Shown in pieces: positions 39,730 through 60,806 of a DNA stretch of 62,469 nucleotides (position 1 is its first letter; each line of letters starts with the position of its first letter). This DNA is from an uncultured Candidatus Saccharibacteria bacterium. GTDB taxonomy: Bacteria > Patescibacteriota > Minisyncoccia > Phycocordibacterales > Phycocordibacteraceae. The stretch is taken from positions 1-62,469 of the forward strand of contig CAYNOO010000004.1 in assembly GCA_964398865.1 (NCBI GenBank). Direction: 5' to 3'. A program made the translations under genes and the position numbers. The notes beneath the pieces were generated by a model. That model was not told where the DNA came from. It saw only the letters and a list, made by a program, of their open reading frames with translations, and searched no databases.

Positions 39730-39907
39730 GCGCGGCTGATGAGTTTGGTCACAAATATTTCCTCGCCGCTGCTCGGAAATTTTGCGACCCCCGCTCACCT
39801 GTTTTGACTTCTGCCAAAACATGGTTCCGCCCGTCAGCACCCATACGAAAGTGAAGTAGGTCACTTTCTCAGCCGCCAAACTAAAATCCCCTTTCGGGGA
39901 TTTAAAG
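39730..39907. repeat. tRNA-3'-associated structured element, Asp copy
   Basis: Direct repeat 39730-39741 = 39910-39921; inverted copy 39833-39844 + 39870-39878 split by 25-nt hairpin 39845-39869. Confidence 0.85.
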
Positions 39908-39982
39908 TGGCGCGGCTGATGGGTGCTGACCCCACGACCTCTCGCGTGACAGGCGAGTGCTCTACCGTTGAGCTACAGCCGC
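39908..39982 (-). tRNA. tRNA-Asp(GTC), atypical T-loop
   Basis: GCGGCTG/CAGCCGC, G73, CCA, CTCGC-CTGTCAC-GCGAG, T-loop GTCAGCA. Confidence 0.9.
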
Positions 39983-40125
39983 AAGCGAGGAAGAAAATGA
40001 AAACCTATTTTCATTTTTTCCGAGTGAAGCGGCTGAAAGCTTTGCTTACAGCCGCAAGTGAAGAACTAATAAACGCCTGCGGTTATTAGTTCCGAGCGTC
40101 AACTGCATGAGTACATACAGCCCAC
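39983..40125 (-). repeat. tRNA-5'-end repeat array upstream of tRNA-Asp
   Basis: Copies of tRNA nt 1-9 at 40047-40055 and (degenerate) 40116-40125; linker AGCAAAGCTTTCA; intervening hairpins. Confidence 0.75.
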
Positions 40126-40184
40126 GTATTCGCGATTCTACCAGAAAAAGCCCTTAAAAACGAGCGCGAGCAGTCCGCTCTACA

Positions 40185-40332
40185 TTGTGTCGGGAGGAGG
40201 CTTGGTCACCTGTTCTCGCTGCGCGAGCCAGTCGACCCCACCTCGTCTGTCGCAAGCGACATGACTCCGGTTTGCAAGTCCTCCACGTCCTGTACTCAAG
40301 TACAGGACTTCCCGAACAATCGCTTCGCTTTG
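40185..40332. repeat. tRNA-3'-associated structured element, CAT copy
   Basis: 16-bp direct repeat 40185-40200 = 40330-40345; inverted copy 40273-40284 + 40310-40319 split by 25-nt hairpin 40285-40309. Confidence 0.85.
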
Positions 40333-40406
40333 TGTCGGGAGGAGGACTTGCACCTCCGACCTAGGGCTTATGAGTCCCTCGCTCTAACTACCTGAGCTAT
40401 CCCGAC
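40333..40406 (-). tRNA. tRNA with CAT anticodon (Ile2 or elongator Met), atypical T-loop
   Basis: GTCGGGA/TCCCGAC, A73, loop CTCATAA, T-loop TGCAAGT; G1:C72 pair so not initiator. Confidence 0.9.
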
Positions 40407-40454
40407 AAACACCGTCGTAGCTAACGCCCGACAATGACACTAATCTAGCACTAT

Positions 40455-41135
40455 TCAGGATTTCCTCAAAAGCGCTTCTGCACTCGCGACATCCTCTGGA
40501 TACGTAACGGTAATCCACTGATTCTGGCGTACCACTGACACTGGCTTTTCTTTTGCGATCATCGAAAGCAAGTCCGTAAGAAAGTATTCCCCTAAACGCT
40601 CATTCAAAACGGGTTCGACTGCAAAGATATCCGGCGCAAGAATCATTGCTCCTGCATTCACGAGAGAGCTCGAGGGATGCTCCGGTTTTTCAACAATCGT
40701 CCGCAACGTGCCGTCTGGGTTAAGCTCAACGACGCCGTACCGCTCCGGATGTTCGCGCTCTGCCGCAAATAGACAGTATTCATACTCCGCGCCTTTACTG
40801 AATGCTTCCTTGTCGCCAATATCATCACCATAGAGCATGATGAATTTCTCATTGATAAACTCTTTCGCTAGATACACGGCATTCCAGGTTCCTAATTGTT
40901 TTTCTTGGACAACGTAGCGGATAGACTTCCCTTTCCACTCGTCTCCGAAATATTCTCGTATTTTTTCTCCCTTGTACCCGATGATAATTACAATGTCCGT
41001 AACTGCATCTGGAAGTTGTTCTAACACATACTCCAAGACTGGCTTGCCGTTAAGCAGCACCATTCCTTTCGGGCGGTCATCGGTGAGCGGGCGCAAACGC
41101 GTTCCCTCCCCTCCTGCGAGTATCAAAGCTTGCAT
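40455..41135 (-). CDS. Sugar-phosphate nucleotidyltransferase (NTP_transferase)
   Basis: ILAGGEGTRLRPLT..PKGM, QEKQLGT, YGDD, EKP. Start moved from 41156. Confidence 0.9.
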   Translation of the reverse strand: MQALILAGGEGTRLRPLTDDRPKGMVLLNGKPVLEYVLEQLPDAVTDIVIIIGYKGEKIREYFGDEWKGKSIRYVVQEKQLGTWNAVYLAKEFINEKFIMLYGDDIGDKEAFSKGAEYEYCLFAAEREHPERYGVVELNPDGTLRTIVEKPEHPSSSLVNAGAMILAPDIFAVEPVLNERLGEYFLTDLLSMIAKEKPVSVVRQNQWITVTYPEDVASAEALLRKS

Positions 41136-41167
41136 AACTCTTCGATGATAACTCAAAAAACTAAACT

Positions 41168-41372
41168 TTGTTATACGGATCGGATTCGGTCACGAGTCAC
41201 GTAAGTATTTTTCTTCGAAAGCTCAAAAAATACTAAGTGCTCTCGACCCCGCCTCGTCTGCCGCAAACGGCATGACTCCGGCTTTCGAATCCTGACGTGA
41301 ACGAAGCAGTTCGTTCACTGCCCTCGCAAAAGCTATGAAAAAACCGGCTCAACGCCGGTTTTTTCGTGCTTG
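41168..41372. repeat. tRNA-3'-associated structured element, fMet copy
   Basis: Degenerate direct repeat 41168-41188 vs 41370-41390; inverted copy 41284-41294 + 41320-41329 split by 25-nt hairpin 41295-41319; terminator-like hairpin 41338-41364. Confidence 0.8.
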
Positions 41373-41443
41373 TTGCGGGGCCAGGATTCGAACCTGGGTC
41401 TGGAGGTTATGAGCCTCCTGAGGTACCACTCCTCCACCCCGCT
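41373..41443 (-). tRNA. Initiator tRNA-fMet(CAT)
   Basis: A1:A72 mismatch, A11:U24, GCGGGG/CCCCGC acceptor; anticodon stem GGAGG/CCTCC. Confidence 0.85.
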
Positions 41444-41528
41444 ATAGAGGGCAATAATACGCCGAATCGACCTACACTTCAAGCTAGGCGGAAATAAGAA
41501 AAAAAGCTATAGTTCGTTTCTTTCCACT

Positions 41529-41786
41529 ATGACTTCAGAAATTAATGCCCGGGAAGAATTGAAAATTCTTGGCGACGAATTGCGAACACAGCTGAATCAC
41601 TTTGCTGATCCAGAAACAGCATTGAGTCCGCACACAAGCTTAGGACGATGGGTACATAATCTAGCTGACTTAATGATAGGAATGCGCATGCGTGTTTCGG
41701 GTGGCGGAGTAGTAGAAACAGGTGAGCTACAAAATGTGCGGGCAAAACTTGCGAGGCTAAAATCAATCGCAGTTAGATACAAATAA
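41529..41786 (+). CDS. Hypothetical protein (85 aa)
   Basis: Fills intergenic gap, helical composition; no motif recognised. Confidence 0.45.
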   Translation: MTSEINAREELKILGDELRTQLNHFADPETALSPHTSLGRWVHNLADLMIGMRMRVSGGGVVETGELQNVRAKLARLKSIAVRYK

Positions 41787-41829
41787 ATAGTTGAATCGAC
41801 CTCTGATTCAAGTAGGTTATAATTTTCTG

Positions 41830-42096
41830 ATGAGCTGGCAGGATATTATTCTTTCCATCGGGCAATATGTTTTCGTCATCGCGCTCCTGCCGTCGGTCTT
41901 TGGCAAAGATAAGCCTGCTCTTTCCTCAAGTTTAATTACTGCCATCATCTTGGCAATTTTCAGCCTCGTGTATTCCACGCTTGATCTGTGGAGTTCGACG
42001 GTAGCGTCCGGCATCGTTTCCGCTACGTGGTTTCTTTTAGCGTGGCAGCAATACAGAAAGAAAAAAGTTTCGGCTTCTGATTCAACAGGGGGTTAG
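41830..42096 (+). CDS. Small membrane protein (PQ-loop-like)
   Basis: MSWQDIILSIG...LLPSV; three TM; TATAAT 6 nt upstream. Start moved from 41791. Confidence 0.6.
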   Translation: MSWQDIILSIGQYVFVIALLPSVFGKDKPALSSSLITAIILAIFSLVYSTLDLWSSTVASGIVSATWFLLAWQQYRKKKVSASDSTGG

Positions 42097-42866
42097 ATGA
42101 AATCGAATTCTTGAAATACCTGCTCGTACAATTTCATTACGCGAAAGGCTTCCTGCTGAGTAAGAATATAACTTGAAGAAGAAGCCGCGACGAAATTTCT
42201 GATGCGATGCGCTTCCCAAGCAAACGGTAGTGTCACGAATGCATTCTCAGGAACCAACCTGATTTGCTCTGAAGTTGTTTTCCCGGCATAGCCTAATTTC
42301 TCAAACATCTCTCCCAGCATCGTGTCAGCTTCAAGGATGCCCTGGCGCCAACGCTTCGGGTCATTGGATCTTGCGCCATCGAGCAAAAGCTGCCAGCGTT
42401 CTCGAAGTGGATGTACTACTGTCTCAGCAGGCGGCAAAGTTCCATACAAGGAGCCTTCACTAAAACGGAGTGAAAAAAGATACACAAGAAGCCCGACGAT
42501 AGCGACGAAAAGAAGCCCTGAAACCGTGTAGGCAATAAAACTATACAGAGACCAAATGAAAGAGATTACCGCTCCAATAAAATTTCCTACAAAAAAAATT
42601 GCGTCTGCAATAAAGCCAAATGGACCACTATGAACTATAGGTTGACCGAGGGATCCAGCTGATCCGTTTCCTCCGAAAAGCCAACTCCAAAAATCCACAT
42701 TGCCTGACGGACTTGCACCGCCTCCCGTAGACGCTCCGCTCGTTAGCGTTGCATTCACATCTCCCGTCACTAAATCAACTTCCGTACACTTTCCACCGAA
42801 AATGGAGTAGATAAGGCAATACCAATACTGGAGATTGACGTACTTAAGGTAGAGAGGTTCCATCAT
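42093..42866 (-). CDS. Conserved hypothetical membrane protein
   Basis: TM segment then W..L...S.DP..WR..ILEAD..L...G.T..E..AW.AH.IRN. Confidence 0.6.
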   Translation of the reverse strand: MMEPLYLKYVNLQYWYCLIYSIFGGKCTEVDLVTGDVNATLTSGASTGGGASPSGNVDFWSWLFGGNGSAGSLGQPIVHSGPFGFIADAIFFVGNFIGAVISFIWSLYSFIAYTVSGLLFVAIVGLLVYLFSLRFSEGSLYGTLPPAETVVHPLRERWQLLLDGARSNDPKRWRQGILEADTMLGEMFEKLGYAGKTTSEQIRLVPENAFVTLPFAWEAHRIRNFVAASSSSYILTQQEAFRVMKLYEQVFQEFDFI

Positions 42867-44278
42867 AGAGTCTCGCCCAGAAGGTCTCGAGCGATATCAA
42901 ACAGTGAGGCTTCGGTACGCTTTGGGCTCATAAACTGTATACCCACCGGCAACTCAACCCCATCCCGAGTCACTTTATTCATCGGTACTGAGATTGCCGG
43001 AATACCGGTCAAGTTTGCCGGAGCTGCAAATATGTCTTCAAGATACATAGAAACCGGGTCGCTCTTCTCCCCTATCTTGAAAGCAGGTCCCGGCGTCGTT
43101 GGAGTAGCGATGAACGCAACATCCGCAAACGCTTTTTTCAAATCATTCGCAAGAACGCTCCGAAGCGCAGTCGCTCGTTTGTAGTATGCGTCGTAATGAC
43201 CAGACGAAAGTACGTGCGCGCCCAAAATAACACGGCGTTTCGTTTCAGGACCAAAGCCCGCCGAGCGTGACTGCTCATATTCTTCAAGAAGATTTTTCCC
43301 TTCATGTGAAAGCCCGTAGCGCATGCCATCAAAGCGCGCCAGGTTAGTAGAAACTTCAGCGGGCATCACGATGTAATACGCAGCAAGCCCGTACGGAGCG
43401 GACGGAAATTCTATATCAACGATTTCATATCCCTTCCCGCGTAACGTGTCCAAAGTTTTTTCAAAATTCTCACGCACATCCGGCTGCGCATCTTTTACGA
43501 ACTCGCGCGGTATGCCGATGCGTTTATTTGAAACACGCGTCTCACCCTGGTTTGGCAATGTCGTGCCATCAAGCGGGTCAGCCCCTCGCATCACATCAAA
43601 CACGAGCTTCGCATCATGAACCGTGTGCGTAATAGGACCTATCTGATCCAGCGAAGAACCCATAGCGATGAGCCCTGAGCGCGATACCTCACCATACGTT
43701 GGCTTCAATCCCACAAGCCCACACAAACTCACTGGCTGGCGTATGGAGCCGCAGGTTTCCGATCCAAGCGCAATAGGTGCCAAGTGCGCGGCAACCGCTG
43801 CGGCAGAGCCGCCTGACGAGCCGCCAGGAACGCGCAGAGTGTCGTGGGGATTTCTTGTTGGACCATACGCGGAGTGTTCAGTAGAAGAACCCATGGCAAA
43901 CTCGTCCATGTTGGTGCGACCCAAAAAAATTGCTCCGGCATCCTTGAGGCGCGCTATCGCGGTCGCATCATAGGTTGCAACATGATTCTCAAGCATTTTG
44001 GATGCCGCGCTCGCACGCTTCCCTTTTATCAAGATATTGTCTTTGACTGCAATGGGAACACCGGTGAGAAGATGAGCAGCGTCTCCTTTCCGAGCGAGAA
44101 GCTTGTCGGCGTCCTCCGCTTTCGTCACGACGTCATCAAATACTTCAAGATACGCATTGAGCGCAGGGTTTTCTTTCTCAATACGCGCTACGTGCGCCTT
44201 CGCAACATCCACCGCAGAAAAAGTCCGCGCGCGGTAGCCTTTTGCCAATTCCTTTGCTGATAAGTCTGTGAGGTCCAT
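42863..44278 (-). CDS. gatA: Asp/Glu-tRNA amidotransferase subunit A
   Basis: AVKDN, NMDEFAMGSSTE, PGGSSGGSAAA, GSETCGSIRQP. Confidence 0.95.
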   Translation of the reverse strand: MDLTDLSAKELAKGYRARTFSAVDVAKAHVARIEKENPALNAYLEVFDDVVTKAEDADKLLARKGDAAHLLTGVPIAVKDNILIKGKRASAASKMLENHVATYDATAIARLKDAGAIFLGRTNMDEFAMGSSTEHSAYGPTRNPHDTLRVPGGSSGGSAAAVAAHLAPIALGSETCGSIRQPVSLCGLVGLKPTYGEVSRSGLIAMGSSLDQIGPITHTVHDAKLVFDVMRGADPLDGTTLPNQGETRVSNKRIGIPREFVKDAQPDVRENFEKTLDTLRGKGYEIVDIEFPSAPYGLAAYYIVMPAEVSTNLARFDGMRYGLSHEGKNLLEEYEQSRSAGFGPETKRRVILGAHVLSSGHYDAYYKRATALRSVLANDLKKAFADVAFIATPTTPGPAFKIGEKSDPVSMYLEDIFAAPANLTGIPAISVPMNKVTRDGVELPVGIQFMSPKRTEASLFDIARDLLGETL

Positions 44279-44283
44279 AAAAA

Positions 44284-44577
44284 TTAACCCAAAACTTTCT
44301 TCACCTTCACGTAATTTCCTTCCCGGCGAGGCACCTGTGCCAAAAGGTCTTCGGTATATTTTCCAGCCTCATGAGGGTTTACATCCTCCCGCATGACATT
44401 CTCTATATCCAAATGCGCAGACGAGCTATTGCTCTCTGGCAGAGGTACCTTCTGCACCACATCTATATATGAAACGATTGCATCGATTTCTCCTTGGAGC
44501 TTTGCGATTTCCTCATCCGTGAGGGAAAGACGACCCAAAACGGCGAGTTTTCGTACATCGTCAGCGCTGATTGCCAT
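44284..44577 (-). CDS. gatC: Asp/Glu-tRNA amidotransferase subunit C
   Basis: V.KLA.L.RL...E, MRED, L...P...G.YVKVKKVL. Start moved from 44619. Confidence 0.9.
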   Translation of the reverse strand: MAISADDVRKLAVLGRLSLTDEEIAKLQGEIDAIVSYIDVVQKVPLPESNSSSAHLDIENVMREDVNPHEAGKYTEDLLAQVPRREGNYVKVKKVLG

Positions 44578-44621
44578 TCCCGGCATTTTATCACGGAGCG
44601 CGCGTAGGCGCATGAACACTG

Positions 44622-46667
<2,046 letters not shown>

Positions 46668-46689
46668 CTAGAAACGTATTTCTTCAAAA

Positions 46690-46806
46690 TCAGCAATTGA
46701 AGAATAGCGAGCATACGATGCAGCATCTATTTGGCGTACTGAGCACGGCGCCACATCCTCCTTTACATGAATACTCACCCCCTGATTCAAAATTTTCAGC
46801 GTTCAT
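46690..46806 (-). CDS. Six-cysteine small peptide 2 (38 aa): MNAENFESGGEYSCKGGCGAVLSTPNRCCIVCSLFFNC
   Basis: Own translation, below ORF-track cutoff; paralog of adjacent peptide with synonymous-biased divergence. Confidence 0.75.
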   Translation of the reverse strand: MNAENFESGGEYSCKGGCGAVLSTPNRCCIVCSLFFNC

Positions 46807-46813
46807 GTATACC

Positions 46814-46924
46814 TTAGCACTTTCTTGCTATTGAACAGATGACGCAACATTTCCCTGGCGCACTGAGCATCCCACCGCATCCTCCTTTGCAGGGGAATTC
46901 ACCACCCGGACCCGTCCTATCCAT
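46814..46924 (-). CDS. Six-cysteine small peptide 1 (36 aa): MDRTGPGGEFPCKGGCGGMLSAPGKCCVICSIARKC
   Basis: Own translation; alternative in-frame ATGs at 46942 and 46954. Confidence 0.75.
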   Translation of the reverse strand: MDRTGPGGEFPCKGGCGGMLSAPGKCCVICSIARKC

Positions 46925-47038
46925 GTTCCCTTCTGCTCTCATATCAAGATGCATTGTGAAGAAAGAAATCTACTCTGGCAATTCCTCACTGAATCGATAA
47001 GGCTTGAACCCATCTAATTTAATAAAAACGCCACGATA

Positions 47039-47611
47039 TCAACTAACCGCATTTAACATTTTATTCTTCCTATACTCCCGTTCAACGCGGAAAGCAACCC
47101 AAATAGGTCCTATGCCGATTATCCAGAAAAAAATCGCACCGACATTGAAGTGCGAAGAAGAAAGGAAAAAAGTACTAGCAAACTTGTCTAGCGTGTAATA
47201 GAGACCGAGACCTGCAATCGCCCACAAATGACCTTTATAAGTAAAGTAAAGAAGCGGAATATAGATAATCAAACTCCAAAAAACATCCCAAAATGATATT
47301 TGTATATCGCTACCGACCAAGTTTATCAAAATTACGAATGTTAGACCAATTGCAAGTAGCGCAAGAATCGTGAGTACCGCGATACCTCTTGAAGACTTAG
47401 AGAACGGCAGTACATCATGTTTCTCAATCTGCAACTTTAATTCTTCGTCAGAAATATTAAACGTATTAAGAAAGCCGTTCTTTTTCTTTGATGCTTTTGT
47501 GTCTTTGGTTTCTTCAGAAGGTATCCCTGCAATTAATGCCTGACCACATTTTGCACAAAACTTCTCATGTCCTTTTTGTGCACCACCACAGTTTGAACAA
47601 TAGATATTCAT
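47039..47611 (-). CDS. Zinc-ribbon N-terminal membrane protein
   Basis: MNIYCSNCG...FCAKCG then about 4 TM. Start moved from 47668. Confidence 0.7.
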   Translation of the reverse strand: MNIYCSNCGGAQKGHEKFCAKCGQALIAGIPSEETKDTKASKKKNGFLNTFNISDEELKLQIEKHDVLPFSKSSRGIAVLTILALLAIGLTFVILINLVGSDIQISFWDVFWSLIIYIPLLYFTYKGHLWAIAGLGLYYTLDKFASTFFLSSSHFNVGAIFFWIIGIGPIWVAFRVEREYRKNKMLNAVS

Positions 47612-47621
47612 AAAAAAATAA

Positions 47622-48191
47622 TTAATATAGTTTTTTAAACTCCTTTTTCCATATCGGCTTAGTAGCAAAAACCACGTACTGTACTCCTAAACGTATAAGC
47701 TTAAGAATCGTCCAAGTCATTAACAACGCCAAAAGGCTATAGAAGAACCAAGGTCCATAATCTGCTTCATTATACGAGGGAACAAAAGTGTAGTTCTTAT
47801 AAGCAGGGGCGCTGTAGGAATAATAATTAGTCCTGTCATAAGCACAAAGTATTCTCGCCTTTTCGTCATCGTAAGAACTCAAACTATCACCGTAAAGGTA
47901 AATGCTATTGTTTCCTGGAGCATAGCTTTTGCCGTTATTACATTGGATTGTGGAGAGATTCTCATCCAAGGTACGATGTGGTATAGAAGAAAATGCAGCG
48001 ACACAAACAACTCCTATACTCCCCACATACAAAAGAATGTACGCGACCTTTAAAAGCCTATACCACCATTTTTCTCCTGATGCGGGAGTGATAAAAATAC
48101 GCTTGTTACTTTCGGAATGAACAGGTGCGCCACATTTCGTACAAAACTTATCGGAGCTATCTAATTTGTTGCCGCATTTTTCGCAAAACAT
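47622..48191 (-). CDS. Zinc-ribbon N-terminal membrane protein
   Basis: MFCEKCG...FCTKCG, TM, extracytoplasmic loop with 2 Cys, TM. Confidence 0.7.
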   Translation of the reverse strand: MFCEKCGNKLDSSDKFCTKCGAPVHSESNKRIFITPASGEKWWYRLLKVAYILLYVGSIGVVCVAAFSSIPHRTLDENLSTIQCNNGKSYAPGNNSIYLYGDSLSSYDDEKARILCAYDRTNYYSYSAPAYKNYTFVPSYNEADYGPWFFYSLLALLMTWTILKLIRLGVQYVVFATKPIWKKEFKKLY

Positions 48192-48262
48192 ATACTTAAT
48201 TTATCTACCGCCTTGCAATTGTCGGGCGAAATTGGCTTGTGTGCATTTTTGCGATTTAAATT

Positions 48263-48508
48263 TTATATCTCCGAAGACGGAGTAGGGTTTGCGAAGGAGG
48301 GACCGTTCTCGGTATAGGCGTCAGTCTTGTGTTCACCTGAGATAGCGCGCATAAGCCAGAGACGTTCTTGGCGAACGAGAAATCCTAAACCCATAACGAT
48401 AACTCCAAACAAAACTGCGAACGTCATTTTAATAACGTTAGGAAAACCAGTGAACGGCAAGAATGCGAGTAGGAGACCGAGCACTAATATGGTGGAGCCT
48501 TTTGACAT
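48263..48508 (-). CDS. Small two-TM hypothetical protein
   Basis: LG...AFLPFTGFP...K; TACACT 6 nt upstream. Confidence 0.6.
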   Translation of the reverse strand: MSKGSTILVLGLLLAFLPFTGFPNVIKMTFAVLFGVIVMGLGFLVRQERLWLMRAISGEHKTDAYTENGPSFANPTPSSEI

Positions 48509-48520
48509 ACGGCAAGTGTA

Positions 48521-49198: not shown

Positions 49199-49214
49199 AG
49201 CGATGCGTACGAAA

Positions 49215-49346: not shown

Positions 49347-49376
49347 AAATGAAATTTACTCTCTAGGCGCTCGTTG

Positions 49377-50669: not shown

Positions 50670-50672
50670 ATG

Positions 50673-51371: not shown

Positions 51372-51374
51372 CGC

Positions 51375-52703: not shown

Positions 52704-52752
52704 TGCGGTGCATTGTACTATTAATGACCCTCATTAGGTGCTACTCTTGCGG

Positions 52753-52790
52753 TACCAGATTATTGACATTCTGGTAGGTTTCTTTAGAAT
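52753..52790 (+). promoter_or_regulatory. Sigma70-like promoter of the polyamine cluster with overlapping palindrome
   Basis: TTGACA 52763-52768, 16-nt spacer, TAGAAT 52785-52790; TACCAGA-N10-TCTGGTA spans the -35. Confidence 0.55.
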
Positions 52791-52811
52791 AACGCGCTCT
52801 AGAAGAATCAA

Positions 52812-54191
52812 ATGCCTCGATCAAAGAAAAACTATAAGCGATTCTGGAAACTCGGCCAGGACGAGTACAACACGCAATACTTCGACATCACTCCCGAGGG
52901 AGATTTGATGGTGAAGGAAGGCAACTATCAATACAACATCCACAACCTCATCAAGAAGTACGGGTCCCCTCTTGAGGTGGTATTCCCATTCATCCTTGAA
53001 AATCGTGTTCGCAACCTCATAGACATCTTTGACGCGTACATAAAGTTGTATGGCTATAAGGGTAAGTTCTACTACCACTACGCAATGAAAGTGAACCAGA
53101 ATAAGGAATTCGTCCTGCCGGTCGTTTCCGAAGGCGGGCACTTCGACGTTGCATCGGTCAACGAGTTGTGGCTCGTAAAGAAGATGCTCTTAGAGCAGAA
53201 ATTCAATCCTAAGATTCGCGTCATCTGCAATGGTCCAAAAACTGAAGCCTACATCACCCTTATCGAAGAGTTGAAGAGCAAAGGACTCACCGTCATCCCT
53301 ATCATCGAAGACTACAACGAGCTCGAGCGATTCAAAAACTTCAAAGGTGAAACCGGGATTCGTCTCAACATGAATATCCGTGTGCAGTCGCACTGGGATA
53401 AGCGTTTTAATCGCTACGGCTTCCGTGAGGATGAAATAGTGAAGCTTGGAAAAATTAGGAACTTGAGCGTTCTTCACTACCATATCTCATCTCAACTAGA
53501 GAAAGTAGATGGGCTCGTGGAACCATTGAAGCGCGCGCTCGAAATTTATGAAAAACTTCGCGAGAAAAATCCAGGGCTCGACACTATCGACATGGGCGGC
53601 GGGGCTGGTGTCCCTTACGAGAAGAAGGGCAAGTTCTATACAGGCAAATCAGCGATAAATAAGATAGTGCGTACTGCTAAGAACTACTGTGATAAAGCGG
53701 GCATCAGGCATCCAAACCTCATTGTTGAATGGGGACGCTATGTCGCCGCTCCCGCACAATTAACGCTCTACAAGATATTGACCGAGAAGAGTGTGAGTGA
53801 AGAAGGCGCGCGCAAGTGGTACATCATCGACGGCAGCTTCATGAACGATCTTTTGGACACCTGGGCTTTGAAGCAGAAATGGCACGTCACGCCTGCTAAC
53901 AACATGAAGAATAGAAAGCTGCAGCGTATTTGGTTTGCAGGCTCCTCGTGTGACTCTGATGATAAATACACGGCAGGAGGCGGAAATATCAGCATGCCTC
54001 GCCTTGAAGACTTGGAGACCAATGACCATCAGTATGTTGCCTTCTATGACACGGGGGCATACCAAGACGCGCTCGCTTCACACCACTGCCTACTCTCCTC
54101 ACCAGCAAAGATCATCTGCCAGGACGGTGAGATAAAATTGGCACGCAGACGCGAGACATCAGAAGATGTCGGGAAACAATTCGGCTGGTAG
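52812..54191 (+). CDS. speA: Orn/DAP/Arg decarboxylase (fold III PLP), probably arginine decarboxylase
   Basis: YAMKVN (PLP Lys), CNGPK, DMGGG, EWGRY, GSSCDSDD, GAYQD; context with aguA/aguB. Confidence 0.75.
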   Translation: MPRSKKNYKRFWKLGQDEYNTQYFDITPEGDLMVKEGNYQYNIHNLIKKYGSPLEVVFPFILENRVRNLIDIFDAYIKLYGYKGKFYYHYAMKVNQNKEFVLPVVSEGGHFDVASVNELWLVKKMLLEQKFNPKIRVICNGPKTEAYITLIEELKSKGLTVIPIIEDYNELERFKNFKGETGIRLNMNIRVQSHWDKRFNRYGFREDEIVKLGKIRNLSVLHYHISSQLEKVDGLVEPLKRALEIYEKLREKNPGLDTIDMGGGAGVPYEKKGKFYTGKSAINKIVRTAKNYCDKAGIRHPNLIVEWGRYVAAPAQLTLYKILTEKSVSEEGARKWYIIDGSFMNDLLDTWALKQKWHVTPANNMKNRKLQRIWFAGSSCDSDDKYTAGGGNISMPRLEDLETNDHQYVAFYDTGAYQDALASHHCLLSSPAKIICQDGEIKLARRRETSEDVGKQFGW

Positions 54192-54205
54192 CGGGGCGCT
54201 CGCGC

Positions 54206-54317
54206 CTGCTTTCTGGAATCTCAAAACCTGTCCAGCGACAGGCTTTGTTCGTCCTCGGCGCAGTTTCGCTGAAACAGCGAACCATGCAACTGCGCCTGCG
54301 AATGTTCCAGAAAGCAG
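54206..54317. other. Branched intergenic secondary-structure element
   Basis: Perfect 13-bp closing stem plus 6-, 9- and 7-bp internal stems. Confidence 0.7.
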
Positions 54318-54388
54318 ACACTCGCTTTTAAGGTGTCTTTTGAAACGACTCTCTTGATATGCATATTTTTGGCTCATTTTGATATAGT

Positions 54389-55405
54389 ATGGAAGATATG
54401 AAAAAAGCACCGGGAAAGAAAAAAGTAACAAAAAAGACCGGACCCATTCGGGCATTCATTGATCATAATTATCGGCACTTCAACGCAGCGGCTTTGAGGG
54501 ATGCAGCCATCGGATACGAGAAGCACATTGATGCAGGAGGAAAGATGATGGTCACCTTGGCTGGCGCGATGAGCACAGCGGAACTTGGCATCTCGCTTGC
54601 GGAGATGATTCGGAAAGGTAAAGTAGACATCATTTCATGCACGGGAGCTAACCTTGAAGAAGACTTGATGAATTTGGTTGCGCACAGTCACTACAAGCGC
54701 GTTCCTCATTACCGAGACCTTAGTCCCGAAGACGAGCGCGACCTTTTGGATAACCATTACAATCGCGTTACCGACACCTGCATCCCTGAAGAAGAAGCAT
54801 TCAGAAGACTTCAGAAACATATATTCAAACTTTGGAAGAAGGCGGACGATGCGGGCAAGCGATTCTTGCCTCACGAATACATGTACCAGCTCATCAAAAG
54901 CGGTGTTTTAAAGCAATACTACGAGATTGATCCGCAAGATAGCTGGATGATAGCTGCTGCTGAGAAAAATATTCCCATCGTGGTGGGCGGCTGGGAAGAC
55001 AGCACTATGGGCAATATCTTCGCCTCCTACGTCATCAAGAAGGAACTCAAAGCTTCAACGATGAAAAGCGGCATTGAGTACATGATTTACCTTACTGAGT
55101 GGTACCGAAAGAACTCCGGCGGCAAAGGTGTTGGATTCTTCCAGATAGGTGGTGGTATAGCTGGCGACTTCCCTATCTGTGTTGTGCCTATGATGTACCA
55201 GGATTTGGAATGGCACGACGTACCATTCTGGAGTTACTTCTGTCAGATAAGCGATTCCACCACCTCATACGGCTCCTATTCGGGCGCGGTACCTAATGAA
55301 AAAATAACGTGGGGCAAGTTGGATATAGATACCCCCAAATACATCATTGAATCCGACGCGACAATTGTCGCGCCGCTTATCTTCTCGTATATCCTCGGAA
55401 AATGA
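54389..55405 (+). CDS. Deoxyhypusine-synthase-like protein (probable homospermidine synthase, SpeY-type)
   Basis: HFNAA, TLAGAM, TGANLEED, YNRV.D, WEDST, IGGG, SYSGA..NEKITWGK, DAT. Start may be 54398. Confidence 0.85.
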   Translation: MEDMKKAPGKKKVTKKTGPIRAFIDHNYRHFNAAALRDAAIGYEKHIDAGGKMMVTLAGAMSTAELGISLAEMIRKGKVDIISCTGANLEEDLMNLVAHSHYKRVPHYRDLSPEDERDLLDNHYNRVTDTCIPEEEAFRRLQKHIFKLWKKADDAGKRFLPHEYMYQLIKSGVLKQYYEIDPQDSWMIAAAEKNIPIVVGGWEDSTMGNIFASYVIKKELKASTMKSGIEYMIYLTEWYRKNSGGKGVGFFQIGGGIAGDFPICVVPMMYQDLEWHDVPFWSYFCQISDSTTSYGSYSGAVPNEKITWGKLDIDTPKYIIESDATIVAPLIFSYILGK

Positions 55406-56256
55406 AAAAGAAAGTCACTGTTGCCGCGATACAAAGCAAGGTCTCTAAGGACGAACACGCGAACCTGAAACATACGCTCGCGCTCGTTCGCCGTGCCGCA
55501 AAGAAGGGCGCGAAGATAATCTCGCTTCAGGAGCTGTATCGGACGACATACTTCCCCCAGTATAAGAAGCAGGCCTTCGATAAATACTCAGAGACGATTC
55601 CTGGGGAGTCCACCAAAGCTTTCAGCGCGCTCGCGAAAGAGCTCGGGGTCATCATCATCGTTCCTTTGTTTGAGAAAGCGAAAGACGACCACTACTATAA
55701 TTCAGCCGTCGTCATCGACCACACCGGAAAGCTCCTGCCGACATACCGCAAGATTCATATTCCGCAGGATGCCTTATTTTATGAAAAGAATTACTTCAAA
55801 GAAAGTACCGACGGCTATAAAATCTACAAGACAAAATTTGGCACCTTCGCCGTTCTCATCTGCTATGACCAGTGGTTTCCTGAGGCTGCGCGCATGGCGA
55901 CCTTGGCGGGCGCTGACATCATCTTCTACCCCACCGCCATCGGGTATGTGCGCGGATACAATTCACCTGACGGCGATTGGCACGACGCGTGGGAAACAAT
56001 CATGCGTGGACACGCTATCGCAAACGGCGTTCATATTGTTGCAATCAATCGCACGGGGCGTGAAGATAAACTGAATTTCTGGGGGCAATCATTTGCCTGT
56101 GACTCATTCGGCAAGGTTCTGAAGCGCGCCAGTGCTACCAAAGAAGAGGTGCTCGTTGCAACGCTCGACCTCAGTCACAACAAACGCATTCGTGAGGGGT
56201 GGGGATTTTTCCGTAATCGCCGTCCAGAAACGTATAAATTTGATCCGACTACGTAA
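55402..56256 (+). CDS. aguB: N-carbamoylputrescine amidase (carbon-nitrogen hydrolase)
   Basis: LQEL (Glu), YRKIHIP (Lys), ICYDQWFPE (Cys), RGHAIANG. Confidence 0.85.
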   Translation: MKKKVTVAAIQSKVSKDEHANLKHTLALVRRAAKKGAKIISLQELYRTTYFPQYKKQAFDKYSETIPGESTKAFSALAKELGVIIIVPLFEKAKDDHYYNSAVVIDHTGKLLPTYRKIHIPQDALFYEKNYFKESTDGYKIYKTKFGTFAVLICYDQWFPEAARMATLAGADIIFYPTAIGYVRGYNSPDGDWHDAWETIMRGHAIANGVHIVAINRTGREDKLNFWGQSFACDSFGKVLKRASATKEEVLVATLDLSHNKRIREGWGFFRNRRPETYKFDPTT

Positions 56257-56258
56257 CA

Positions 56259-57293
56259 ATGCAAACACCAAAAGAGTTAGGTTTTTCAATGCCCGCGGAG
56301 TGGGAAAGGCACACGGCAGTCTGGCTCTCGTGGCCTCACGACACCACCTCATTCCCCCACCTCAAAGAAGCAGAAGAGTCTTTTGCTGAATTTATAAAAG
56401 AGATTTCCACTTCAGAAAAAGTAGAGCTCCAGGTCTTGAATGAAGTGATGCTCGACCACGTAACTGAAATACTTGAGGCGCGAGGTGTTGATATGAGCAG
56501 AATCACCTTTCATCCGGCTAATTACGCGGATATATGGTTTCGCGACTATGGTCCCTTGTTCATCGTGAACCGCGAGACGAAGGAGCTCGCGATGACAAAG
56601 TGGATTTTCAATGCCTGGGGCGATAAGTACCAAACACTACTTAAAGACAACGCCACACCTCATCGGATGAATGAGGCAATGAAGCTCAAAGTATTCGAGC
56701 CCGGAATCGTGATGGAGGGCGGCTCTATAGAGGTGAATGGAAAAGGTACCTTAATGACAACGGAGCAGTGTCTCTTAAATAAGAACCGAAATCCGGAACT
56801 CTCTCGGGAGCAGATCGAAGCTTCACTCCGTGATTACTTAGGTGTACGGCATTTCGTCTGGCTTAAAGAAGGAATAGAGGGAGATGATACCGATGGACAC
56901 ATAGACGACATCGCGCGCTTCGTGAACGACACGACAGTCTTATGCGCCTACGAAGAAGATACGACGAGTGCAGACTATGCGACTTTGAAAGAAAATTTTC
57001 AGATTCTACAGCGCTCTGTCGACCAGAGCGGTACGCCACTTACTGTCATTAAGCTTCCAACGCCTGGGGCAATCTCCGCTCACAAGGAGCGTTTGCCCGC
57101 AAGCTACGCAAACTTTTATATTGGCAATACGAAAGTGTTGGTGCCCATCTTCGGCACACTCAACGACCAAAAAGCTTTAGGCATTATTCAGTCGGTTTTC
57201 CCTGACCGGAAAGTAATCGGCATCGATGCAACTTACCTTGTATACGGCATGGGCACTTTCCACTGTATGAGCCAGCAGCAACCGGAGGTTTAA
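56259..57293 (+). CDS. aguA: Agmatine deiminase (PPAD family)
   Basis: MPAEW, W.RDYGP, EGGSIEVNG, DTDGHIDD, SYANFY, G.FHC.SQQQP. Confidence 0.92.
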   Translation: MQTPKELGFSMPAEWERHTAVWLSWPHDTTSFPHLKEAEESFAEFIKEISTSEKVELQVLNEVMLDHVTEILEARGVDMSRITFHPANYADIWFRDYGPLFIVNRETKELAMTKWIFNAWGDKYQTLLKDNATPHRMNEAMKLKVFEPGIVMEGGSIEVNGKGTLMTTEQCLLNKNRNPELSREQIEASLRDYLGVRHFVWLKEGIEGDDTDGHIDDIARFVNDTTVLCAYEEDTTSADYATLKENFQILQRSVDQSGTPLTVIKLPTPGAISAHKERLPASYANFYIGNTKVLVPIFGTLNDQKALGIIQSVFPDRKVIGIDATYLVYGMGTFHCMSQQQPEV

Positions 57294-57376
57294 CCGTCGC
57301 AAAGTTCCTTATTTTTGTTCGGTCGCACAGAAGTGCGACACCCTACGAAACATACTCACTACGTTCGTTGTTTCTG

Positions 57377-57458
57377 TGGGCGCGGGGAGACTCGAACTCC
57401 CAACCCTTGCAGGATACGCTTCTGAGGCGTACGCGTATACCAGTTCCGCCACGCGCCC
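57377..57458 (-). tRNA. tRNA-Leu(CAG)
   Basis: GGGCGCG/CGCGCCC, TACGC-CTCAGAA-GCGTA, long variable arm. Confidence 0.95.
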
Positions 57459-57499
57459 TTGAACGGAGACTATAACAAATTAAGGATTTCTTTGCTGCT

Positions 57500-58582
57500 C
57501 TAGATTGATTCAAGTGCTTTGCACAACCTTTCAAATTCTTCTTCGGAGTGAGCTGGAAAATTTCCGATGCGAATATGATTTTCTTTGTGGAATCCGTAGC
57601 CCGAGCTCACTACTATTCCCCTCTCCTTAAGGGCTTGGATTACCGGAAGCGATCCTCCTTTTACAGTAGCTACAAGCGTGGTGACTGAGCGAGCACTAGG
57701 GTCTTGGACGAACGGATTTAAAACAGAGCTTTCCTCAAACAAATTGTAGAGCTGCCCCGCGCGCACCTTAGTGGTACTTCGCAACTCTTGGATTTCTTCT
57801 GCCATCTCGCCGGCAACTTTCATAAGAAGATAGAGCCCAAGAACATTTGGCGTCTCCGGAGTTTGATTGCGCTCCGCATATTTCTTAAGCTCAAGGAAAC
57901 TATGAAAACTGCCTATTGATGTCTTGGCAGAGAGATCTTCCGCTTTTGCAAGCGCCCGAGGGCTCACGATCAATGCGCCTAAGCCCGCCGGCAGACCGAA
58001 GCATTTTTGGACTGAAAAGAACGCGCAATCGATATCCTTGAACTCAACTTCAGCGATGGGGGCTGAGGAAACGATATCTACCCCGATGAGCACGTCCGGA
58101 TACTTAGCGCGAAGCATTTCTATGGCTGAAGGACGGATTGCACTACCCATGCTCGTTTCATTCTGGGTAACACAGATTATTTCTGCTGCATCAGAAAAAG
58201 AAACATTCTGTAAATCAGGAACTGCCCCATCAGCTGCTGTGAGTGTCTCAGTCTTCCTACCTAATTCTTTACTTATGACCTCCCATCGCTTAGAGAAAGC
58301 TCCATATACAATATGAGCGCTCGTCTCACGAACGATATTCTCAATAATACGCTCCATCCCTTCCGTACCAGAAGACAGAAAAAAAATCTCATAATCGGCA
58401 GGGACACCAAGGAGTTTCCTCAAGGACACAATGGTAGCAGCGACTATGTCTTGAAAACCTTTACTGCGGTGCGAGATAGATGGAATGCCAAGCGAAAACG
58501 CTTCTGCTACATATCCAGATACGGATGGAAAGAGCGCGGAAGGACCGACAGTCCAGATATCAGATGTGGATTCACTTGGCAT
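57500..58582 (-). CDS. serC: Class V aminotransferase, probable phosphoserine aminotransferase
   Basis: GPS, SHRS..F, NETS.G, D.VSS, FSVQK.FG (PLP Lys), TPN; co-oriented with serB-serA. Confidence 0.75.
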   Translation of the reverse strand: MPSESTSDIWTVGPSALFPSVSGYVAEAFSLGIPSISHRSKGFQDIVAATIVSLRKLLGVPADYEIFFLSSGTEGMERIIENIVRETSAHIVYGAFSKRWEVISKELGRKTETLTAADGAVPDLQNVSFSDAAEIICVTQNETSMGSAIRPSAIEMLRAKYPDVLIGVDIVSSAPIAEVEFKDIDCAFFSVQKCFGLPAGLGALIVSPRALAKAEDLSAKTSIGSFHSFLELKKYAERNQTPETPNVLGLYLLMKVAGEMAEEIQELRSTTKVRAGQLYNLFEESSVLNPFVQDPSARSVTTLVATVKGGSLPVIQALKERGIVVSSGYGFHKENHIRIGNFPAHSEEEFERLCKALESI

Positions 58583-58585
58583 ACA

Positions 58586-60505
58586 TTAGTAAAGAATGCG
58601 GAGTCTGATAGTCTCAGACATCTTTTTGAGTGTCTCTACGATACCTGGTTTATATTTGTCTTCAACGTCGGTGATAACATAGCCCACGTCATTCATCGTG
58701 CCGAGATACTGACCGAGAATATTAACGCCCTCCTGACCCATGAGCGTGTTGATTTTCGCTAACACGCCAGGCACATTTTTATGTATATGAATGAGACGGT
58801 GTGCGTGATTCAAAACTGGTAATTGTAAATTAGGCAGGTTGACTGAAAGCATTGTGCCGCCGGTGTCGATGAATGAGGCGAGCTTATTAGAGAGAAAGCG
58901 AGCAATACTTTCCTGCGCTTCTTCGGTAGAACCACCAACGTGTGGTGTAAGGATGACGTTAGATAATCCTTGCAGAGACGATACAAACTTCCCAGGGCTC
59001 TCTTTAGGCTCTTCCGGGAAGACATCGAGTGCCGCTCCTCCGAGGTGCCCGCTTTTAAGCGCCTCTGCGAGAGCAGATACGTCCACGACCGCTCCCCTGC
59101 TGATATTGAGGAAAAGCGCTCCTGGTTTCATTAGACTGAACTGCTCGCTTCCTATAAGCCCTTTGTTGAATGAGCGACCGTCTACATGAAGCGTAACAAT
59201 GTCGCTTTTCCTCAGAAGTTCTTCTAAAGACTCAACGCGCGTTGCGTTTCCGATGGCGGGTCGCTCAACAATATCGTAGAAACAAACGTTTAATCCCAAA
59301 CTTTCAGCAATCACCGAGAGCTGCGAGCCGATATTTCCATATCCTACAATACCCAAAGTCTTCCCACGTATCTCGTATGCCCCTTTTGCTGATTTGCCCC
59401 ATTGCCCTTCGTGAAGCGCGAGACTTTTATCAAAAACGCGCCTGGCAAGCATAATGATAAGACCGATAGTGAGCTCAACAACACTGCGACCATTACTGAA
59501 AGGAGCGTTGAACACCGCGACTCCCCGTTTGGTTGCAGCGTGCTGATCTATCTGGTTCGTACCGATGCAGAATGCACCTACAGTTAGAAGATTCGTTGCT
59601 TTCGCGAGAACCGCATCAGACACATGCGTGGAAGAACGGATACCTAAGATGGCGACGCCCTTTATTTTTTCTGCGAGCGCCGTCTCTGAAAGTGCCTTAG
59701 GGGAAGTCTCTACCTGGTAGCCTTGGGATCTAAAATATTCTGCAGCGAACGGATGAATATTCTCAAGTAACAGGATCTTAAGCCGACTTTTTGGGTACGA
59801 GACCGCGCGTGGCATATTCAAAGCAAACAAGAGTTCATCAAAATTAGCTATAGCGAGATCTGCCTTTTCAACTACCTGAGCGCGAGAAACATTTTCCGTG
59901 AAAGCAACAAACTTGTCAGCGACTCCAAGAATTCTAATTTCAAGATCAGTCGCACCATCTCCGATCGCAAGAACCTGACCTTTGAGCTTAAGATTTTTTA
60001 CTGCAAGCGCTTTCCCTTTATCTTTCGTCAATATACCGGGACTCACTCCCTGAATAACACCTTTCTTATTAAAACGAAGTTCGTTGGCGAGAACGTGGGA
60101 TGGAAAGATGCCGAACTCTTTCACTATGGGAACGATGCATTCTTTGAACCCGCCTGACACGATGTAGATGCAGTCGCGGTTCTTCTGGAAGAAATCGCGA
60201 TTCCGCACTACCGAGGGCGTTATTCGGCTTTTCAGATACTCAACCGTCTCTTGTACGTGAGAGCGATTAGGAGAAAACAAAGCAAGACGTTGTTTCAGTG
60301 AGTCCGAAAAAGGCAATTTCCCTTCCATTCCCTTGGAAGTAATAGCTTCTATCTTTTTCAAAATTGCCTCTTTGCGAGGATTATCTTTAAGAGCGAAAGC
60401 GGCAAGCACATCAATGGTCTCGTCACGAATGAACGTGCTATCAAAATCAATGATGAAAAATGTCTTGGGGATCTTAACTGTCTTCCGTTTCTGAATTTGT
60501 GCCAT
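58586..60505 (-). CDS. serA: Phosphoserine phosphatase (HAD) / D-3-phosphoglycerate dehydrogenase / ACT fusion
   Basis: N-terminal DFDST..E.ID, SGGF, K, GDG.TD (SerB); GIRS, CIG.NQ, GYGNIG, DVFP.EP, PHVGGST.EAQ, HKNVPG.L (SerA + ACT). Confidence 0.92.
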   Translation of the reverse strand: MAQIQKRKTVKIPKTFFIIDFDSTFIRDETIDVLAAFALKDNPRKEAILKKIEAITSKGMEGKLPFSDSLKQRLALFSPNRSHVQETVEYLKSRITPSVVRNRDFFQKNRDCIYIVSGGFKECIVPIVKEFGIFPSHVLANELRFNKKGVIQGVSPGILTKDKGKALAVKNLKLKGQVLAIGDGATDLEIRILGVADKFVAFTENVSRAQVVEKADLAIANFDELLFALNMPRAVSYPKSRLKILLLENIHPFAAEYFRSQGYQVETSPKALSETALAEKIKGVAILGIRSSTHVSDAVLAKATNLLTVGAFCIGTNQIDQHAATKRGVAVFNAPFSNGRSVVELTIGLIIMLARRVFDKSLALHEGQWGKSAKGAYEIRGKTLGIVGYGNIGSQLSVIAESLGLNVCFYDIVERPAIGNATRVESLEELLRKSDIVTLHVDGRSFNKGLIGSEQFSLMKPGALFLNISRGAVVDVSALAEALKSGHLGGAALDVFPEEPKESPGKFVSSLQGLSNVILTPHVGGSTEEAQESIARFLSNKLASFIDTGGTMLSVNLPNLQLPVLNHAHRLIHIHKNVPGVLAKINTLMGQEGVNILGQYLGTMNDVGYVITDVEDKYKPGIVETLKKMSETIRLRILY

Positions 60506-60545
60506 AGGTATAAAAATTCATTATAGCGGGAACGCCCAGCTATAC

Positions 60546-60570
60546 AAAAACCGGCATACGCCGGTTATTT
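60546..60570 (-). terminator. Hairpin/terminator ending the tRNA-Ile element
   Basis: aaaaaccggc-atac-gccggttattt. Confidence 0.6.
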
Positions 60571-60571
60571 T

Positions 60572-60731
60572 GTGCGAGTGGAAGGAATCTCTCCTTACAG
60601 GAGCTGTACACCTTTGCGGTTTTCTCACGCAAAAGCCGCTCGTAAACATCGCAAAGGACTCCGATTCCTTCACGTACGCCAAGCCGTTGGCGTACTCACT
60701 CGCATACAAAAAGCCGGTATGAACCGGCTTC
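60572..60731. repeat. tRNA-3'-associated structured element, Ile copy
   Basis: 18-bp direct repeat 60572-60589 = 60734-60751; inverted copy 60660-60671 + 60697-60704 split by 25-nt hairpin 60672-60696. Confidence 0.85.
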
Positions 60732-60806
60732 TGGTGCGAGTGGAAGGAATCGGACCTTCGACCTCTGTCTTATCAGGACAGCGTTCTACCACTGAACTAC
60801 ACTCGC
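60732..60806 (-). tRNA. tRNA-Ile(GAT), atypical T-loop
   Basis: GCGAGTG/CACTCGC, A73, CCA, CTGTC-CTGATAA-GACAG, T-loop TCCGATT. Confidence 0.93.

Follow-up and report, generated by a model that had tools for sequence, protein, structure and literature searches.

What does a folded, protein-free stretch of DNA do behind a transfer RNA (tRNA) gene, and why would it hold copies of the end of that gene in both orientations? The question is raised by a 62,469-nt stretch of an uncultured Candidatus Saccharibacteria bacterium (contig CAYNOO010000004.1, assembly GCA_964398865.1), called here in its full length the window. ARAGORN places eight tRNA genes in the window, all on the minus strand. A folded, gene-less unit of 150-200 bases lies 3' of four of them: tRNA-Asp, a tRNA with the anticodon sequence CAT, an initiator-type tRNA-Met (fMet) and tRNA-Ile. 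These units belong to an undescribed element family that occurs behind tRNA genes throughout the ultra-small Patescibacteria. Their arms are complementary to the adjoining tRNA, and we give about an even chance to the reading that they are protein-less insertion elements guided by pairing, with the folded sense strand handled by an unlinked enzyme.

Architecture of the units behind four tRNA genes

Read from the tRNA along the minus strand, each unit comprises a terminator-like hairpin, a distal arm, a hairpin insert, a proximal arm, a core and a direct copy of the tRNA 3' end. In the four window units, the distal arm is a 7-10-nt complement of the acceptor 3' strand (tRNA positions 66-72), and the proximal arm is an 11-12-nt complement of the T-loop and the T-stem 3' strand (positions 54-65, or 54-64 in fMet). 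The insert interrupts this pairing at tRNA position 65/66, and at 64/65 in fMet, exactly where an earlier sequence-only reading of this DNA had placed it. It is 25 nt long and built as A-[9 bp including the closing G:C, 4-nt loop]-GU. That reading had called the hairpin invariant; its geometry is, but its sequence is not, with the loops CUAC, UUGA, CUGC and CGGC in the window and CUGC as the family consensus. The base opposite U65 of tRNA-Asp is A and the base opposite A72 of fMet is U; therefore, the arms are complements of the tRNA 3' strand and not copies of the 5' strand. An origin of the arms from the 5' strands of the same tRNA is likewise ruled out by the positions of wobbles and mismatches. 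The hairpin stem matched neither the tRNA nor its flanks as a possible source.

The direct copies of the tRNA 3' end measure 12 nt (Asp), 19 nt (CAT), 22 nt (fMet, degenerate) and 18 nt (Ile). The CAT copy takes in the trailer, which in this tRNA gene reads CAA and not CCA, a detail that the sequence-only reading had already remarked upon. A k-mer test with the last 32 nt of each tRNA recovered inverted and direct copies downstream of Asp, CAT, fMet and Ile, in agreement with the four sites and coordinates first proposed, and found no such copies behind the window tRNAs for Gln, Thr(CGU), Thr(GGU) and Leu. Contigs assembled from four independent DNA runs agree with the region at every base and contain no alternative joints.

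Element 1 follows tRNA-Asp(GUC) (39908-39982, minus strand as for all coordinates of the four elements and their tRNAs), which has the T-loop GUCAGCA and an encoded CCA. A terminator-like hairpin (39884-39903; AAATCCCCGAAAGGGGATTT then TAGTTT) lies between the two. It is followed by the distal guide arm (39870-39877; antisense of the acceptor 3' strand, positions 66-72), the A-[hairpin]-GU insert (39845-39869; AG AAAGTGAC CTAC TTCACTTT CGT) and the proximal guide arm (39833-39844), which is antisense to tRNA positions 54-65 with 12/12 matches. Core helix P2 (39792-39832) reads NNC-G-GA-RYC-A-UG [hairpin A] CA-GRY-GA-GNN. The GG linker and core helix P3 (39747-39791), in which GGUCG...UGACC closes a variable hairpin, lead to the direct copy of the tRNA-Asp 3' end (39730-39741; CATCAGCCGCGC).

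The second target is a tRNA-Met-type gene (CAU; 40332-40406) with the T-loop UGCAAGU and the trailer CAA. Behind it, the terminator-like hairpin is weak or absent. Element 2 (40185-40316) consists of a distal arm (40310-40316), the hairpin insert (40285-40309), a proximal arm (40273-40284), P2 (40240-40272), P3 (40204-40239) and a direct repeat that includes the trailer CAA (40185-40203); a covariance model of the family matches it at 40227-40309 (E 6.9e-13). Element 3 (41166-41364) adjoins the initiator-type tRNA-Met (CAU; 41372-41443) and is matched at 41238-41319 (E 3.5e-18). Its parts are a bidirectional terminator (41338-41364), a distal arm (41320-41329), the hairpin insert (41295-41319), a proximal arm (41284-41294), P2 (41251-41283), P3 (41188-41250) and a degenerate direct repeat (41166-41187). 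An orthologous copy exists in L074, a locus syntenic with the window. Elements 2 and 3 belong, with element 1, to core family 1.

Element 4 (60572-60730) stands behind tRNA-Ile(GAU) (60732-60806; T-loop UCCGAUU). It starts with a terminator (60706-60730), a distal arm (60697-60703), the hairpin insert (60672-60696) and a proximal arm (60660-60671); this left module is the same as that of family 1 and reaches 14.8 bits with the family-1 model. A family-2 core (60590-60659) and a direct repeat (60572-60589) follow, and a second terminator lies at 60544-60566. Similar terminator hairpins thus flank the unit, AAGCCGG..CCGGCTTTTTGT and AACCGG..CCGGTTTTTGT, one ahead of it and one past the direct repeat. 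This terminator seems to have been duplicated along with the tRNA tail, as in two loci of other genomes (L025 and L076).

The family-1 core of the Asp, CAT and fMet units follows the pattern NNC-G-GA-RYC-A-UG-[hairpin A]-CA-GRY-GA-GNN-GG-GGUCG-[hairpin B]-YGUGACC. This pattern occurs 3 times in the window against 0.00 expected (100 shuffles), which bears out the earlier claim that three cores share a design. The Ile core had been taken for a divergent copy of the same design. It belongs instead to a second family, which ends ...AAGGUGUACAG-CUCC-UGUAA-GGAG-A, carries the arm-and-hairpin module of family 1 and recurs in nine other loci, among those listed often in tandem with family-1 units. At least two unrelated core types exist, and they share one arm module.

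The consensus of 120 copies describes a three-way junction with a branch hairpin; the core, of about 90 nt, has two helices. Across the family-1 alignment, 96.3% of the cells are paired (72.7% when shuffled), and both sides have changed in 16 of the 20 pairs. The covariation score of 0.672 compares with 0.212 for shuffled alignments and was reached by 0 of 500 shuffles; slid controls gave 0.05-0.15. The middle pair of P2a, left free by the search pattern, is CG in 46 copies, GC in 41, UA in 15 and AU in 15. The internal loop of P2, G + GA / GA, amounts to one bulged G with tandem G.A pairs; a K-turn was rejected at this site, where the bulge is 1 nt and not 3. The G.U pairs of hairpin B number 175 on the tRNA-sense strand and 52 on the opposite strand, and in 93% of copies the tRNA-sense fold has the greater stability (mean difference, 5.2 kcal/mol). 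From the G.U excess, it follows that the tRNA-sense strand folds, and not its opposite.

Other parts of the unit have a different character. The 9-bp hairpin contains only 7 G.U among 801 pairs, and all four Watson-Crick pairs occur at most of its positions. C(GNA)G triloops (16 elements, 1.6 expected) and GCNNAGC mini-hairpins (24, 3.7 expected) are frequent among the apical loops, the latter enriched about 7-10-fold. Such loops are classic extra-stable mini-hairpins of DNA, unlike the GNRA and UUCG tetraloops usual in RNAs.

Distribution and guide pairing across Patescibacteria

A scan with the exact pattern, covering one genome per species and loci of about 8 kb each, returned at least 118 loci, nearly all of them from Patescibacteria. 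The taxa among the matches listed include Paceibacteria and the Kaiser-, Zambryskii-, Nomura-, Campbell-, Vogel-, Taylor- and Giovannonibacteria. Matches in Kitasatospora and Dehalococcoidia look like chance and were not recovered by the covariance model. The pattern had 0 matches in the viral contigs of IMG/VR. Three lake metatranscriptomes, from the study that is the source of L015, gave no match, and in four groundwater metatranscriptomes only conserved 16S and tRNA parts were matched.

The covariance model was built from 50 foreign copies and contained no sequence of the window. Run on the window with its filters off, it recovers only the three family-1 units, all on the minus strand (88.9, 65.3 and 60.6 bits; E 3.5e-18 to 7.9e-12); the next-best match is the left module of the Ile unit. 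Beyond the window, it finds at least 139 copies in 100 loci, with up to five per 8 kb. The sequence-only reading had suggested such a model as a check. The search pattern was strict, so that diversity is under-sampled, and variants in L074 and L075 show the family to be broader. Genuine copies were also seen in metagenome-assembled genomes (MAGs) labelled Patiriisocius sp. (L004 and L090) and Acidimicrobiales (L096), where the model matches five copies in L004 and two in L096. These contigs are probably mis-binned Patescibacteria DNA.

With respect to known families, which here included the tRNA-like, HEARO, group I/II intron, RtT, tmRNA and skipping-rope models, only tRNAs and 16S rRNA reach the gathering score of Rfam 15 in the window, and searches of the four elements against Rfam up to E = 10 gave nothing credible. 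Full-text literature searching returned no description of such elements, which accords with the initial impression that no named family matched.

The relation between arms and tRNAs holds well outside the window. Among 123 copies (120 in fetched loci and 3 in the window), 83 have a same-strand tRNA within 320 nt upstream, and the tRNAs adjoining the copies of the fetched loci represent about 31 anticodons. The longest exact complement of the neighbouring tRNA in the 22 nt before the core is mostly 8-12 nt long and reaches 20 nt; re-paired controls give 4-8 nt. Arms do match the adjacent tRNA in other genomes, as the sequence-only reading had anticipated. Taken together, the arms of a unit complement a single uninterrupted stretch of the target strand by Watson-Crick pairing, and a second arm beyond the hairpin, 7-13 nt long, is often present.

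Two arrangements can be distinguished. In the T-loop type, to which all four window units belong, the guide pairs from the start of the T-loop. In the 3'-end type, its partners are the final few tRNA bases and the trailer; the hairpin stands directly behind the tRNA and makes up, together with the guide, a single perfect palindrome with as many as 24 bp on each side, which also serves as the tRNA terminator. A T-run of at least 4 is present in 60% of the 3'-end-type copies and in 13.5% of the T-loop type. In both arrangements, hairpin and core are separated by a fixed spacing of 17-19 nt. The hairpin had been described as sitting at the junction of T-stem and acceptor. That position stands, but the hairpin lands at 65/66 because the guide has a fixed length of about 12 nt from the core, and not because of tRNA geometry.

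Guide mismatches are distributed unevenly, with 37 of 46 in positions 8-12, away from the core. The 8 guide nucleotides nearest the core pair with the near-universal T-loop, and they look like a seed that lets copies move between tRNAs.

Insertion-like behaviour and competing explanations

Several observations indicate that the units behave as insertions. Of 37 T-loop-type copies, 26 carry a direct repeat that begins 3 nt into the stretch paired by the guide, between C56 and R57. For the 3'-end type, the start of the repeat falls at about the discriminator. Because the direct copy begins within the paired stretch at this offset, the gene upstream is left whole. Duplication length varies from 4 to 66 nt. 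The longest case concerns a protein gene: in Patescibacteria UBA6899 (L035; DKBN01000056.1, minus strand, about 1100-1400), a family-1 unit lies at the 3' end of topA (topoisomerase I) with a guide that matches 10-11 nt of the gene. The last 66 nt of topA, stop codon included, are duplicated behind the unit, and the open reading frame (ORF) is intact. In four loci (L115, L110, L028 and L073), the unit stands 0.9-2.4 kb beyond its tRNA or repeat partner, and the ORFs between them encode an SDH-type protease, a DUF6122 protein and unknowns. Inside the long P3 variants, no ORF was found. In L108, a family-1 core harbours a nested family-2 unit (plus strand, about 2060-2400), placed between GAGGCGGG and GGGTCG; the terminal UGUAA hairpin of the nested unit rebuilds the interrupted GGGTCG.

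Comparison with L074 adds detail. Three tRNAs there, including Asp and CAT, are 100% identical to those of the window, and the flanks are 75-85% identical. The arms are kept. At the Asp site, where the window has a single unit, L074 carries two in tandem; these share terminator and distal arm and differ in hairpin and core. Cores have been exchanged between sites, hairpin B of the window Asp unit being 88% identical to hairpin B of the CAT unit in L074. Between the window and L074, 4-6 of the 8 variable base pairs of the hairpin stem have changed, always with compensation and including transversion pairs. Such changes, made without a wobble intermediate, are more easily explained by copying of one arm from the other than by stepwise compensation. 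Within one genome, the cores at tRNA-Gly, tRNA-Val and tRNA-Met are 88-94% identical. Core identity between genomes has a median of 65% (95th percentile, 77%), and the same tRNA across genomes also gives 65%. By these identities, cores cluster by genome and not by tRNA.

A pairing-guided insertion element would account for these features as follows. A folded single strand would be the substrate of an unlinked enzyme, and its guide would pair with the exposed tRNA-sense strand of the target. Pairing would set the 3' end of the element (GUGACC) at the joining point, 3 nt inside the duplex. A second, downstream break at a variable position would produce the duplication of 4-66 nt and keep the target gene whole. 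The universally conserved T-loop would offer an 8-nt landing seed, and copies could pass between different tRNAs, the distal arm being brought into register with the new target later. Strand-internal correction against the duplicated copy, while paired with the arm, would be a likely route for this rewriting. We lean towards DNA, rather than RNA, as the substrate because the core always lies behind a terminator and contains GNA triloops and perfect palindromes; the intrinsic terminator between tRNA and core was recorded throughout, with the weak or absent hairpin behind the CAT tRNA noted above. The wobble pairs of hairpin B, the tandem G.A motifs and the depth of conservation speak for RNA instead. 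In its widest and more doubtful form, which we advance tentatively, the proposal is of a gene-less class of mobile elements: a split guide of about 20 nt would pick the site by pairing, with the universal tRNA T-loop as seed, and would be rewritten for each target, so that a core of about 90 nt could colonise any tRNA gene and occasionally a protein gene. The sequence-only reading had preferred a non-autonomous element with a split guide. This remains the best-supported of its proposals, given the range of about 31 anticodons, the topA case, the tandem, nested and cargo-bearing arrangements and the clustering by genome.

A number of points weigh against pairing-guided insertion. No unit contains an ORF, the 118 loci and the 62-kb window are free of serine-recombinase catalytic motifs, and the cargo ORFs are ordinary accessory genes. 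Neither an empty/filled allele pair nor an excised form appeared in the assembler contigs for this organism. The similarity of cores within a genome would also be explained by gene conversion between old copies, and the direct repeats of the most similar copies are imperfect. The window cores are only 59-64% alike, which is the background level; the copies are therefore old, with no recent activity in this genome. Phylum-wide conservation of the core, many copies in very small genomes and the tolerance of P3 for G.U pairs also fit a host function. The rewriting of arms after a jump is conjecture throughout.

A host function of this kind, which we regard as unlikely, would take the form of an RNA device: a read-through transcript in which the guide binds the T-arm and acceptor strand of the (pre-)tRNA, or forms a tRNA-like minihelix with the unit's tail copy, and the core recruits a processing, quality-control or modification activity. 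It draws on the folding of the tRNA-sense strand with G.U-tolerant P3, and on tandem G.A internal loops, an invariant linker and strong covariation, which are typical of functional RNAs. Conservation across the phylum with several copies per small genome agrees with it, as does the perfect match of ortholog arms to their tRNA even though the fMet direct repeat has decayed. tRNA mimics such as tmRNA-like RNAs, YrlA and the viral TLS have an acceptor-like stem with a free 3' NCCA and a T-loop or elbow. On the sense strand of the units, guide and tail copy of the T-loop type can form an acceptor/T-like helix of 7 + 5-9 bp in which the core replaces the T-loop; 3'-end-type copies form no such helix. 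An RNA device is, however, difficult to reconcile with an intrinsic terminator that always separates tRNA and core, and in the 3'-end type the unit's own hairpin is that terminator. For some copies the target is topA or another element, and others sit kilobases away beyond cargo; the same arm module serves two unrelated cores; arms and hairpin avoid G.U; and the apical loops are unlike the usual RNA tetraloops. The cis antisense switch that the sequence-only reading had offered as an alternative is disfavoured on the same grounds, namely the terminator before the core and the topA and cargo cases, which are not tRNA-specific. Its third suggestion, an opposite-strand tRNA mimic, is hardly credible. 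The plus strand of the Asp copy does read GCGGCTG...CAGCCGCCA, but its CCA is a chance feature of the Asp arm that the other copies lack, conserved G.U pairs become A.C mismatches on that strand (52 wobbles against 175), the fold is less stable in 93% of copies, and the arms complement the tRNA 3' strand. Target-primed reverse transcription of a SINE-like retroelement, in which the guide opens the target, an opposite-strand nick primes from the element 3' end and a second nick is variable, seems improbable. A precise 3' junction (offset +3) with a variable and sometimes long duplication would suit it, as would a sense strand that folds with G.U pairs, and the ORF immediately downstream of the Asp element is of the endonuclease/exonuclease/phosphatase family, maybe by coincidence. 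No reverse transcriptase turned up in any locus, where none was systematically searched for, and neither a 5'-truncated series nor an A-tail was seen; the terminator upstream of the core and the perfect palindromes, which favour copying at the DNA level, also argue against it.

Recombination-based explanations bring the units closer to known tRNA-associated DNA. They could be folded single-strand recombination sites of a cassette system, similar to integron attC or CTX phage attP(+), with guide and tail copy folding as a duplex replica of the tRNA gene end, a recombinase encoded elsewhere and the window units as empty cassettes. This would be a narrower version of pairing-guided insertion, and we rate it somewhat below the RNA device. 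Structure prevails over sequence in both systems, one strand folds, and units with or without a gene stand in series, here with cargo behind tRNAs. Furthermore, the hairpin directly behind a tRNA extends to a perfect palindrome that is centred on CTGC and can reach about 50 bp, which is about the size of a serine-integrase att site. In contrast to attC and attP(+), the units have no R''/L''-L'/R' boxes, no GTTRRRY core and no nearby integrase, and their arms copy the target; the consensus of 120 copies contains no R''/R' core sites (RYYYAAC / GTTRRRY) and is not a single imperfect hairpin. Neither a recombinase gene nor a serine-recombinase motif was found in the 118 eight-kb loci or the 62-kb window. 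Att sites read by a protein should conserve sequence, whereas here stems and arms vary freely with pairing kept, and in T-loop-type copies the arms flanking the hairpin are not complementary to each other. Classical tRNA/tmRNA islands and prophages likewise target the 3' part of a tRNA gene, bring a copy of its tail and leave the gene intact; their direct repeats start in the T-loop (an integrase sublocation), and cargo is possible. The units share direct repeats of 12-22 nt in the window and a start at position 57 in most family members. They differ in measuring 110-200 nt without an integrase, in the antisense target copy split by a fixed hairpin, in a covarying single-strand core, in one family serving many tRNAs and in duplications of 4-66 nt. 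No unit has an ORF that could encode an integrase, and the motif search covered serine recombinases, tyrosine recombinases not having been searched for systematically. That the units are inert scars, attL/attR leftovers of integrase-borne islands after cargo loss, is very improbable: direct tRNA 3'-end copies starting in the T-loop are the classical island signature, but such scars lack an antisense target copy split by a fixed hairpin, and they would not leave, in at least 139 copies, a core that is conserved, covaries and keeps invariant unpaired bases.

Guide-bearing elements offer further points of comparison. Group II introns (EBS1/EBS2-IBS1/IBS2), group I introns (internal guide) and IS200/IS605 PATEs also use a split guide that pairs with the flank just upstream of the insertion, and PATEs are non-autonomous and hairpin-bearing. 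The units have no catalytic core (no Rfam match), a guide of 12 + 7-13 nt instead of 4-6 nt, target duplication in place of splicing, and neither TnpA nor an intron-encoded protein. Compared with PATEs, which have end hairpins, a 4-5-nt guide, a fixed tetra- or pentanucleotide and no duplication, the guide is 12 + 7 nt, the target variable and the duplication 4-66 nt. Compared with introns, the core of about 90 nt has two helices, and the upstream gene is complete without splicing. The bridge (seek) RNAs of IS110/IS1111 are likewise structured nucleic acids of about 150-180 nt with programmable guides flanking a stem-loop. Bridge RNAs, unlike the units, have two loops (target and donor), halves that read opposite strands and a place beside a DEDD recombinase gene; here there is no adjacent ORF, and a single split guide has both halves complementary to the same strand. 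RtT RNA, the 178-bp tyrT repeats of Escherichia coli (RF00391), consists of noncoding repeats behind a tRNA that end in a copy of its 3' end. It matches the units in neither sequence nor structure, has no antisense arm and is confined to one locus. Two RNA classes were considered and set aside: a hammerhead, for which CUGAUGAG in the Asp copy is merely antisense of tRNA-Asp, and guides of the C/D-box or H/ACA type, whose boxes and unpaired target base are absent.

If the arms direct insertion, the units would represent a compact, naturally reprogrammable targeting module without a linked protein gene, conceptually close to bridge RNAs and to the retargeting of group II introns. Much unexplained intergenic DNA behind Patescibacteria tRNA genes would then be accounted for, in a superphylum to which a large part of bacterial diversity belongs. 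If they are an RNA device, they would form a phylum-wide set of guide RNAs aimed at the tRNA T-arm and acceptor, for which we know of no bacterial precedent. Under either reading, they lend themselves to tests, since the core is defined, the guide follows a 12-nt rule and the joining point a +3 rule. The tail copies also matter for annotation: they resemble att sites and broken tRNAs, and programs that search for islands can be misled by them.

Neighbouring genes and minor observations

Two ORFs and two tRNA-related features near the units are recorded here. An endonuclease/exonuclease/phosphatase ORF (38955-39752, minus strand; PF03372, E 7e-07, 29.6 bits) begins right after the Asp direct repeat. 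Its fold is that of the LINE nicking endonuclease, and it may be an ordinary housekeeping gene. A 145-aa ORF (37599-38036, minus strand) lies between two tRNA-Thr genes, directly downstream of tRNA-Thr(GGU), and has a weak HNH endonuclease match below the curated cut-off (PF13392, E 3e-4).

Three of the four element-bearing tRNAs of the window have non-canonical T-loops that lack U54-U55 or U55 (GUCAGCA, UGCAAGU and UCCGAUU), and the four tRNAs without elements have normal TTCRANY T-loops. The association is possibly coincidental because most element-bearing tRNAs of other genomes have normal T-loops.

About 45 nt upstream of tRNA-Asp, a mini-hairpin made of the acceptor strands of this tRNA occupies 40029-40058 on the minus strand. 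It consists of CTTGCGGCTGTA (3 leader bases and tRNA positions 1-9), AGCAAAGCTTT and CAGCCGC, and it resembles tRNA-Asp with the entire middle deleted. A diverged counterpart is present at the same place in the syntenic L074.

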